A stretch of DNA of 64,000 nucleotides from Candidatus Bathyarchaeota archaeon (lineage in GTDB: Archaea; Thermoproteota; Bathyarchaeia; Bathyarchaeales; Bathycorpusculaceae): NCBI GenBank assembly GCA_963826715.1, contig CAWGYA010000008.1, forward strand, positions 96,001-160,000. Reading direction: 5' to 3'. This document shows positions 45,000 through 46,989 of this stretch, piece by piece. The position numbers and the translations under genes are program-made. Under the pieces are notes generated by a model. It ran no database searches. It worked only from the letters and a program-made list of their open reading frames with translations, and was not told the origin of the DNA. Numbering within the stretch: the stretch's first letter is position 1; each line of letters opens with the position of its first letter.

Positions 45000-45530
45000 T
45001 TATTGAGACGACAAAGCTTTTTGTAGAGAATCAGCACAGATAGGTCCGACACGGTAGAGAACTTCAGCTTCATGCCCATCAAATTCGAAATCTGCCTCGC
45101 TAAATAGCACACACATCTCAATTTCTCCATCGAGCAAATGTGATAGTTTCACATAATTATTTTTGGAGACTTCATTCGAAGGGTTAATAGTTGCTTCAAA
45201 ATATTTAGCCCCTGTCAGTTTTAACTGATTAAGCAACAAGGTTTTTTGAAGGCCGTGGCCTCGGTAATCTTTGTCCACTACTACTTCCCAGCTGAAAAAA
45301 GTATCAGGCCGCCGAGGCGGAACATAGCCTGATGCAAAACCAATTATTTTGCCACCATCTTGAGCAACTATGCAAGTATCTTGGAAGTCCCTGGCTAAGA
45401 GAAAATATGTGTAGCGAGAGTTTAAGCCAACGTAGGGTCGGTTGGCAACGAGGAGCTTGTAGACTTCTTTTATATCGTCTACCTTTACTTTTCGTATAGA
45501 AAAAGATGAATGAATGTTTGCTTTGGGCAT
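45000..45530 (-). CDS. EctA-family (diaminobutyrate acetyltransferase-like) GNAT
   Basis: LNSRYTYFLL, DFQDTCIVA, GFASGYVPP-RPDTFFSWEV, RGHGL, EATINPSN, GHEAEVLYRVGP; likely start MPKAN at 45530, 10 nt after the aminomutase stop. Confidence 0.85.
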   Translation of the reverse strand: MPKANIHSSFSIRKVKVDDIKEVYKLLVANRPYVGLNSRYTYFLLARDFQDTCIVAQDGGKIIGFASGYVPPRRPDTFFSWEVVVDKDYRGHGLQKTLLLNQLKLTGAKYFEATINPSNEVSKNNYVKLSHLLDGEIEMCVLFSEADFEFDGHEAEVLYRVGPICADSLQKALSSQ

Positions 45531-45540
45531 AAGACCACTT

Positions 45541-46989
45541 TTAAGGGGTGGCTTTTTTTCTGCGCTCCAGCCTCTTATTTCCTTGTGGAACAAGTGAGAT
45601 GGTTTTGTCGTGGTTAGCTAAGAGTTTCTCGATACCAATTGGTGCCTTGCGCTCGTCTTCTTCAAGTTTATGCTGCAGAGGGCATTTTTTGCATTCTCTG
45701 TCACACTGGGCGGGCTTATAATCTTCAGGCTCATTATAAGTTGTAATAACACCTTCATAGTTGCGCAACACGGTCTTGTTGTCGGACCAAGAAATAATAT
45801 AATTTGGCATAACAGGAATTTTGCCTCCACCGCCAGGGGCGTCAATAACAAATGTTGGAACAGCAAAACCGCTAGTGTGCCCAATAAGACTTTCCATGAT
45901 TTCTATCCCTTTACCAACGGAAGTGCGGAAATGTGTAAGTCCTTCTGAGAGGTCGCATTGGAAGAGATAATATGGGCGAACACGGTTTTTGACTAGTTTT
46001 TGGTTGAGTTTCTTCATAATTTGGGGGCAATCGTTAACACCTGCCAGCAAAACTGATTGGTTACCAAGCGGAATGCCTGCATCCGCAAGTTTTCGCAGTG
46101 CCTCTTTGGCTGAGGGAGTGAGTTCTCGTGGGTGGTTAAAATGAGTATTTATCCACAACGGGTGATGCTTTTTTAGCATTGCAACAAGTTCGTCGGTTAT
46201 TCGGTAAGGAAGCACAACAGGAGTTCGGGTGCCGATTCGAATTACTTCCACATGATGTATCTTTTGCAGTTCGGTCAATATCCAGTCAAGATAATCGTCG
46301 GGAAGCATAAGTGCGTCTCCGCCCGAGAGTAATACATCTCTTATGTGGCAATTGTTTTTTATGTAGTCTATACCGCTTTGAATTTGCTCTTTAGAGGGGA
46401 TGTATTCGGAGTCGCCGACTTTCCGTTTACGAGTACAATGTCTGCAGTACATGGCACAACGGTTACTGATTAAAAACAGTACTCGATCGGGGTAGCGATG
46501 CGTTATTCCCTTAACGGGACTGTCTTTGTCTTCATGCAACGGATCCTTCATGTCATATGTACAAACTTTTAGCTCCGCCGGGTTAGGAAAAGCTTGTTTG
46601 AAGATGGGATCGTTGCGGAAATTTTCTTTCTCAATAAGTGAAGCATAATAGGGAGTGATGTTTAAGGGAAATTTCTTAACGGTTTCTTCAAGTTCCCGCC
46701 GCTCTTTACTGGAGAACCTTATTCCCATAAAATTTTCAAAAGCTTCTATAGTTCGTATAGAGTTTTTCAGTTGCCACTGATAGTCCTTCCACTCGACAAC
46801 GGAAATTTTGTCGGTTCGCTTGGAGGTGTAGGTTTGGTAGCTCTTTGGGGTTTCAGTTTTCTCAATAATCAGGGTTGTCTCTCTCCGGATTTGTTTTTGG
46901 GTAGATTTTATAGTTATTATATGTTTTTGACAAACTTTCTTTTTGCAAGAAAGCAAACTAAGGGGTTTCTCTATCCAAGGTAGGGACAT
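45541..46989 (-). CDS. ablA: Lysine 2,3-aminomutase (AblA/KamA type)
   Basis: HRYPDR, radical-[21 protein letters not shown]-site [11 protein letters not shown]-terminal CDRECKKC; true start probably near 46870. Confidence 0.93.

Follow-up and report, generated by a model that had tools for sequence, protein, structure and literature searches.

An aminomutase gene and an EctA-type acetyltransferase gene lie side by side

We analysed a 64-kb stretch of a Candidatus Bathyarchaeota genome (contig CAWGYA010000008.1; the whole stretch is called the window below). On its reverse strand it carries a gene for a lysine 2,3-aminomutase (kamA/ablA) followed directly by a gene for a GNAT-family acetyltransferase (Table 1). 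A preliminary description of this DNA, made from the sequence alone, had proposed a two-gene operon with a 10-nt gap, an AblA/KamA aminomutase with the motifs QCDLS and VIDAPG and a C-terminal cysteine cluster, and a 176-aa GNAT bearing the EctA signature (L-2,4-diaminobutyrate acetyltransferase of ectoine synthesis) along its full length. Each of these features was recovered in our analysis, and the stop codon, spacer and start codon between the two genes can be read directly in the DNA. Co-transcription of kamA and the GNAT gene is suggested by this close spacing. At related loci, the tblastn matches to the two genes stand 11-62 nt apart. A T-rich stretch downstream of the GNAT gene is a possible archaeal terminator that would close the two-gene unit.

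Table 1. Features of the kamA-GNAT locus and its neighbours (window positions).
Feature	Position	Strand	Remarks
kamA/ablA, lysine 2,3-aminomutase (radical SAM, pyridoxal phosphate (PLP))	45541..46989	-	maximal open reading frame (ORF), 482 aa; conserved part from about codon 40 (about 46872); stop TAA at 45543-45541
Spacer, kamA stop to GNAT start	45531..45540	-	10 nt, read from DNA
EctA-family GNAT of the kamA-linked clade, predicted beta-lysine N-acetyltransferase	45000..45530	-	176 aa from first ATG (at 45530); maximal ORF 45000..45593
T-rich stretch (T4 run and T5 run), candidate archaeal terminator	44970..44990	-	10-30 nt past GNAT stop
Membrane-anchored family-2 glycosyltransferase	43766..44878	-	Pfam Glyco_trans_2_3 and Glycos_transf_2
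ATP-pyrophosphatase (ThiI / tRNA-thiolase-like) with NFACT-R_2 RNA-binding domain	47022-48050	+	divergent neighbour of kamA

The aminomutase resembles lysine-specific enzymes

The window aminomutase scores 771.3 bits against the lysine 2,3-aminomutase model TIGR03820 (lys_2_3_AblA; equivalog cut-off 525.4), compared with 475 bits against the glutamate 2,3-aminomutase model (cut-off 650) and 378 bits against the arginine model (cut-off 600). The Pfam domains Radical_SAM and LAM_C are both present. Aligned to the Clostridium subterminale enzyme 2A5H (E=1e-151), the protein retains the CxxxCxxC motif (Cys178, Cys182 and Cys185), Asp346 and Asp383 (in QCDLS and VIDAPG, respectively) and Lys390 (in GGGGK), and it ends in a cysteine cluster (CDRECKKC). 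The CxxxCxxC motif, the PLP lysine and the C-terminal cysteines presumably have the roles described for them in the Clostridium enzyme. The two aspartates align with Asp293 and Asp330 of that enzyme, which we take to be the residues that bind the free epsilon-ammonium group of lysine. Because both of these residues are kept, free lysine is the expected substrate of KamA, with acetylation coming second. At the level of its sequence, the window protein has all the features of an aminomutase specific for lysine.

Where kamA truly starts in the window is uncertain, because its 482-aa ORF opens with 39 codons (window 46864-46989, reverse strand) that show no conservation and are interrupted by stops in most homologues. 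Homologous kamA ORFs are mostly about 445-450 aa long, compared with 482 aa in the window. Many of them start with the methionine of a conserved M-I-V-E-K-T-E; the same codon (codon 40) is CTG in the window, where kamA reaches 482 aa solely through an upstream ATG. The 5' extension contains an A/T-rich TATA-like stretch (46920-46905) and the sequence GGAGAG (46886-46881). Translation may begin either at the upstream ATG or at a non-canonical start.

Other KamA-family proteins occur in the phylum. Around 24 genomes from other families encode a shorter protein of about 368-398 aa, which stays under the AblA cut-off with 445-517 bits and whose match ends near model position 365 (e.g., G378:C8:25286-26353 and G025:C4:10339-11388). 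Additional paralogues reach about 250-270 bits, and a KamA-like N-terminal part is present in some proteins of 620-660 aa.

The acetyltransferase forms a separate clade of the EctA family

The window GNAT matches the EctA model TIGR02406 with 127.6 bits (cut-off 120.6), and the match spans positions 1-156 of the 157 in the model. When scored against both models, as the preliminary description had suggested, it matched EctA and gave no match to the AblB model TIGR03827 at E<=0.01 (176 aa versus a 266-position model). It grouped neither with AblB, the acetyltransferase that partners AblA, nor with generic GNATs. Four other members of the kamA-linked clade score 113.8, 122.8, 129.6 and 131.5 bits against TIGR02406, so that the clade straddles the cut-off, compared with 154.8-206.1 bits for EctAs from ectABC clusters. 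Many clade members are named diaminobutyrate acetyltransferase by NCBI and JGI; the mixture of this name with "GNAT family" in the sources follows from scores that fall around the cut-off.

The AlphaFold2 model of the window GNAT has a confidence score (pLDDT) of 95. In a Foldseek search against the PDB, ranks 1-10 were all EctA chains (E 2.5e-16 to 1.2e-13) and the next match was Ard1 (4e-9), a gap stated as seven orders of magnitude. The ten EctA chains superpose with template modelling (TM) scores of 0.82-0.89 (normalised by target length) and root-mean-square deviations of 1.8-2.7 Å. In sequence, the window GNAT is 34-39% identical to canonical archaeal EctAs from ectABC clusters of the same phylum, which is about the level at which canonical EctAs resemble each other between phyla (35-42%).

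When 1.84 billion representatives were searched without a profile, the clade (at least 53% identity) stood apart from all other proteins (at most 44%). Phylogenetic trees were built from 15 rows linked to kamA, 13 that come from verified ectABC clusters (eight bacterial plasmid records and five archaeal genomes) and unlabelled representatives. Fragments, proteins outside 150-235 aa and frame-broken loci (L010, L017-L020) were excluded, and a reduced tree of 75 rows also omitted two thirds of the unlabelled representatives together with P0146 and P0195. The kamA-linked GNATs fell on one side of a single branch, with support of 99 in FastTree (161 rows) and 98 in IQ-TREE (75 rows; Shimodaira-Hasegawa-like approximate likelihood ratio test, SH-aLRT), and the clade sits on a long stem. 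These trees are unrooted and do not distinguish a clade nested within EctA from one that is sister to it; rooting with distant GNATs was rejected as unreliable given the long stem. On this evidence from sequence comparison, the kamA-linked GNAT belongs to the EctA family as a separate clade. No fused forms of the GNAT were found, the sole candidate being a 486-aa protein with FtsX/MacB domains and half a GNAT, which is probably an assembly or frame artefact.

kamA and the acetyltransferase gene are inherited as a unit

The pairing seen in the window recurs in other genomes. When one genome of each prokaryotic species was scanned, 16 loci with close relatives of the window GNAT emerged, and kamA lies directly upstream on the same strand at all 16; it is also upstream of the GNAT gene in three further genomes. 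A metagenome scan added 80 loci, and kamA is directly upstream at 70 of the 72 that have at least 150 nt of upstream sequence. The resulting 99 clade loci are not all independent, because they comprise 90 distinct GNAT protein cores. Additionally, a search of a 90%-identity cluster database returned 380 matches at E<=0.001 (best 120 of 380 listed, clade membership unchecked).

At one of the two exceptional metagenome loci (L101:1-1746), the GNAT gene (encoding Gly at position 34) follows straight after the divergent ThiI-like gene that usually adjoins the pair, and non-coding sequence of about 430 nt takes the place of kamA. This locus seems to have lost kamA and to have retained the GNAT gene and the glycosyltransferase gene.

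Of 401 genomes sampled from the phylum, six have a close GNAT (at least 64% identity), the window's genome included. AblA over the cut-off was found in the same six genomes and in no others of the sample, with the two genes adjacent in all six. Within the window's genus, two of 11 genomes carry the pair. Where flanking genes differ between loci, kamA and the GNAT gene are the only genes shared, and the pair is bordered by unrelated housekeeping genes, such as those for UvrB, TFIIB, NUDIX and a class I/II aminotransferase. None of these neighbours is an ATP-grasp ligase, and no ligase adjoins the pair in the 19 genome loci. The kamA-GNAT unit is accessory and patchy in its distribution, and its two genes are inherited, lost and arranged together.

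The titles of the 16 genome loci name Bathyarchaeota or Bathyarchaeia, an uncultured archaeon and, in one case (L012), "Methanocella sp.". The "Methanocella" label is almost certainly wrong, because a phylum-level search from that genome (G401) returned the same genomes as the phylum of the window. This metagenome-assembled genome (MAG) also has at least seven flanking genes in common with the window (49-73% protein identity). One protein, on an 8.9-kb contig, carries the label Candidatus Acidoferrales. All members with a checkable taxon are Bathyarchaeia. The sequencing runs that match this DNA are four DNA soil-metagenome runs from one study, with no RNA run among them.

Carrier genomes lack the ectoine pathway and AblB

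The preliminary description had noted that ectB, ectC and ablB are missing from the window. We found none of the three in the 64 kb, and whole-genome searches of the window's genome (96% complete) and the five other carriers agreed. EctC was detected in none of the six genomes, whereas the same search was positive in all three ectABC control genomes of the same phylum. Matches over the cut-off to EctB and AblB were likewise lacking in all six, and the L012 genome also had none to AblB. The presence of ectB or ectC elsewhere in the genome, which had been named as an argument against the proposal, was therefore not observed in any carrier. EctB-like matches in the window's genome that lie outside the window (218 and 91 bits; cut-off 552) were rejected as generic aminotransferases, which also occur in all 14 control genomes.

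At the loci themselves, tblastn probes for EctB and EctC taken from a Salinivibrio ectABC cluster matched none of the 19 clade genome loci and none of the 80 metagenome loci, and matched all 13 canonical ect loci. The carrier genomes have neither a source of diaminobutyrate (EctB) nor a user of its acetylated product (EctC). The window's genome also gave no match to two families of lysine fermentation, beta-lysine 5,6-aminomutase/KamD (PF09043; a search without a positive control) and BKACE (PF05853).

Residues conserved across the EctA family are changed in the clade

The motifs of the window GNAT read YVGLNS, YTY, SWEVVV, EATI and HEAE. The preliminary description had singled out VGLNS and WEV as departures from EctA and YxY, ExTI and HExE as kept. 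The three kept motifs are indeed present (as YTY, EATI and HEAE), and the two departures are clade-wide and otherwise almost unique in the EctA family. Family-conserved residues that the clade retains are Asp19, Asn37, Ser38, Tyr40, Tyr42, Trp81, His153 and Glu156.

We compared the clade with 141 other EctA-family rows. The most clear-cut differences are Gly at position 35 (Asp or Glu in 99% of other family members), Glu at position 82 (Gln in 100%), Val at position 34 (Leu in 98%) and Gln at position 95 (Ala or Gly in 99%). The clade also has Asn at position 116 (mostly Thr or Ser in other members), Thr at 41 (varied), Ser at 66 (mostly Val, Ile or Leu), Phe at 78 (mostly Leu, Val or Ile) and Ile at 20 (Gly or Ala). 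Across the 99 clade loci, Gly35 is found in 98, Glu82 in 97, Thr41 and Asn116 in 99 each, and Gln95 in 96. Of the defining EctA features that were tested, the window GNAT lacks two: a context of ect genes and the residues that are otherwise invariant.

Outside the clade (143 rows), Gly35 and Glu82 occur together only in P0132, a 170-aa protein from a singleton cluster on a 12.5-kb contig. P0132 has 38% identity and branches just below the clade (support 95-96). It shares Val34-Gly35, Thr41, Glu82 and Asn116 with the clade and has Tyr at position 95. In the ESM Atlas, P0132 is nearest to a Bathyarchaeota GNAT cluster; the loci from the metagenome scan all belong to the main clade. It may mark an older or wider lineage of kamA-linked EctA-like proteins.

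The secondary structure of the model places position 35 in the loop that joins helix 1 to helix 2, position 82 on strand 4 and position 116 just past strand 5. The helix 1-helix 2 loop, strand 4 and the strand 5 region generally line the acceptor site of GNATs, and from the model we infer that Gly35 and Glu82 contact the substrate. In an alignment with the Paenibacillus EctA, window positions 35 and 82 correspond to Asp33 and Gln80, which have Tyr38 and Trp79 as neighbours. These Paenibacillus residues are presumably part of the active site. The position of the ligand in the EctA structure 3D3S is unverified, according to a passage of a 2018 ectoine review.

A separate observation concerns an EctA relative on a Streptomyces plasmid (L027; NZ_CP071045.1, 184993-193493). 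Its ectB-ectA pair lies in an apparent secondary-metabolite cluster with an adenylating enzyme, a carrier protein, a P450 and a ferredoxin, and an ectoine-synthase-like gene is found a few genes away. This protein keeps the canonical Asp and Gln residues despite its non-canonical context.

Genes flanking the unit

A glycosyltransferase gene lies downstream in 11 of the 19 clade genome loci and in 17 of the 45 metagenome loci with at least 1300 nt of downstream sequence. It was rejected as a third member of the operon, being present only where the other flanks are also shared. The divergent ThiI-like/NFACT-R_2 gene adjoins the pair in 11 of the 19 genome loci. Elsewhere in the window, G+C content is 0.40-0.47 at positions 12000-36000, compared with 0.34-0.38 in the first 12 kb and 0.34-0.43 near the operon.

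Discussion

We propose, with a probability of roughly 60%, that an EctA-type scaffold with changed specificity does the job of AblB in these Bathyarchaeia and makes N-epsilon-acetyl-beta-lysine. The kamA and GNAT genes would encode one biosynthetic unit. KamA/AblA would convert L-lysine to beta-lysine (3,6-diaminohexanoate), and the GNAT, with a remodelled acceptor pocket, would then acetylate beta-lysine from acetyl-coenzyme A (acetyl-CoA). The acetyl group would most likely be placed on the terminal N-epsilon amine, giving N-epsilon-acetyl-beta-lysine, the solute made by AblA/AblB in methanogens. Compared with diaminobutyrate, beta-lysine has one more carbon between its amines and one more between the inner amine and the carboxylate. 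The loss of a side chain at Gly35 and the gain of a carboxylate at Glu82 would fit a deeper pocket in which the counter-charge has moved. As an EctA-family member with a remodelled acceptor pocket that is predicted to act on beta-lysine, the GNAT would be a functional analogue of AblB, and neither its orthologue nor a diaminobutyrate acetyltransferase of ectoine synthesis. By analogy with AblA/AblB, the unit is likely to provide a compatible solute, which would protect soil and sediment Bathyarchaeia against osmotic or drying stress. The core of the preliminary description, an EctA-type GNAT in the place of AblB, is thus supported by the model scores, the genome searches and the recurrence of the pair; the product it named is a prediction from sequence, and the osmolyte role an argument by analogy.

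The resemblance to AblA/AblB of methanogens, Methanoperedens and some bacteria lies in the arrangement, since both are two-gene operons with an acetyl-CoA-dependent GNAT encoded after the lysine 2,3-aminomutase, and in the predicted product and role. The difference lies in the second enzyme, which belongs to the EctA family instead of that of AblB. Salt induces the abl genes both in methanogens and in Ca. Methanoperedens, as passages of two papers describe (PMC9128505, PMC11337218). The Methanoperedens operon is described in the second of these as containing an MscS-like channel gene, whereas no such gene is linked to the window pair. With EctA itself (3D3S, 6SJY, 6SK1, 6SL8 and 6SLL), the window GNAT shares its fold, 30-40% identity and conserved core residues, and its score lies at the family cut-off. 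Unlike EctA, the clade GNAT never adjoins ectB or ectC and almost always adjoins kamA, and it forms a separate long-stem clade with Gly35, Glu82, Val34, Thr41, Gln95 and Asn116. EctA has close paralogues outside ectoine synthesis, according to a passage of the 2018 ectoine review that puts this in general terms and does not use the term beta-lysine. Our full-text literature searches returned no description of a bathyarchaeal pair of kamA and an EctA-type GNAT. The text of a GTDB-wide survey of kamA and ablB (PMC11337218), in the sections available to us, mentions neither EctA nor Bathyarchaeia, and its supplementary tables may list bathyarchaeal kamA genes.

Several observations weigh against the proposal that the unit makes N-epsilon-acetyl-beta-lysine as a solute. 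The acetylation site (N-epsilon or N-beta) is not readable from the sequence. Gln95 takes the place of a small residue in the CoA-binding loop, which is unusual and unexplained. Two of the 72 metagenome loci (L101 and L122) have the GNAT gene without kamA directly upstream, and at the codon where kamA usually starts, the window itself has CTG. In L017-L020 the GNAT match is split or interrupted by stop codons, and in L005, L008, L017 and L019 the kamA match is split; these frame breaks (L005, L008 and L017-L020) may reflect assembly error or decay. The habitats are mostly soil and sediment, not saline, and no mechanosensitive channel or solute transporter gene lies beside the pair, unlike in some abl and ect clusters.

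The strongest rival, which we consider unlikely, is that the EctA-derived GNAT places the acetyl group on N3, the beta-amino nitrogen of beta-lysine, or on another KamA-derived amine. The unit would then make an acetylated beta-amino acid that is not yet described, such as N-beta-acetyl-beta-lysine, rather than copy AblB, an outcome that we hold to be doubtful to the same degree. The pocket substitutions remove an acid (Asp/Glu to Gly35) and add another (Gln to Glu82), which could re-orient a diamino acid, and the atypical Gln95 of the CoA loop points the same way. However, EctA acetylates a terminal amine, and His153, Glu156, Tyr40 and Trp81 are unchanged; terminal-amine acetylation is the simplest expectation for these two reasons. 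Furthermore, no ligase or other tailoring gene is conserved beside the pair, and the searches turned up no fused GNAT.

A less probable alternative places the pair in lysine catabolism, in detoxification or in nitrogen storage, and not in stress protection, with beta-lysine acetylated for degradation or export. This would suit carriers that live in soils and sediments without obvious salinity, and pairs that have no osmotic-stress genes linked to them. Against it, the window's genome has no PF05853 match and no PF09043 match (the latter from the search without a positive control), and the only role documented for AblA/AblB, in the passages cited above (PMC9128505, PMC11337218), is salt-induced solute synthesis. 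Finally, it is highly improbable that the GNAT is a true L-2,4-diaminobutyrate acetyltransferase with incidental kamA adjacency: a score just over the TIGR02406 equivalog cut-off and the JGI and NCBI names of many clade members favour it, but the carrier genomes lack EctB and EctC, the clade scores only 113.8-131.5 bits against 154.8-206.1 for EctAs of ectABC clusters, two family-invariant residues are changed, and co-occurrence and adjacency with AblA are strict.

The EctA label on clade proteins wrongly suggests that Bathyarchaeia synthesise ectoine. Conversely, surveys in which N-epsilon-acetyl-beta-lysine producers are counted through the presence of kamA and ablB would score the carriers as having kamA only, and miss them. 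For enzymology, replacement of AblB by an EctA-type enzyme would be a case in which the acetyltransferase of one solute pathway has been re-aimed at the intermediate of another, with Gly35, Glu82, Asn116, Thr41 and Gln95 as candidate specificity residues. If the product were instead an undescribed acetylated beta-amino acid, an uncultured archaeal group that ranks among the most abundant in soils and sediments would have a stress solute of its own, the Gly35/Glu82 swap would show how nature can turn the EctA scaffold towards longer or beta-amino substrates, and the deep sister P0132 could belong to the same wider family. For ecology, the kamA-GNAT unit offers a testable handle on the stress physiology of uncultured Bathyarchaeia.

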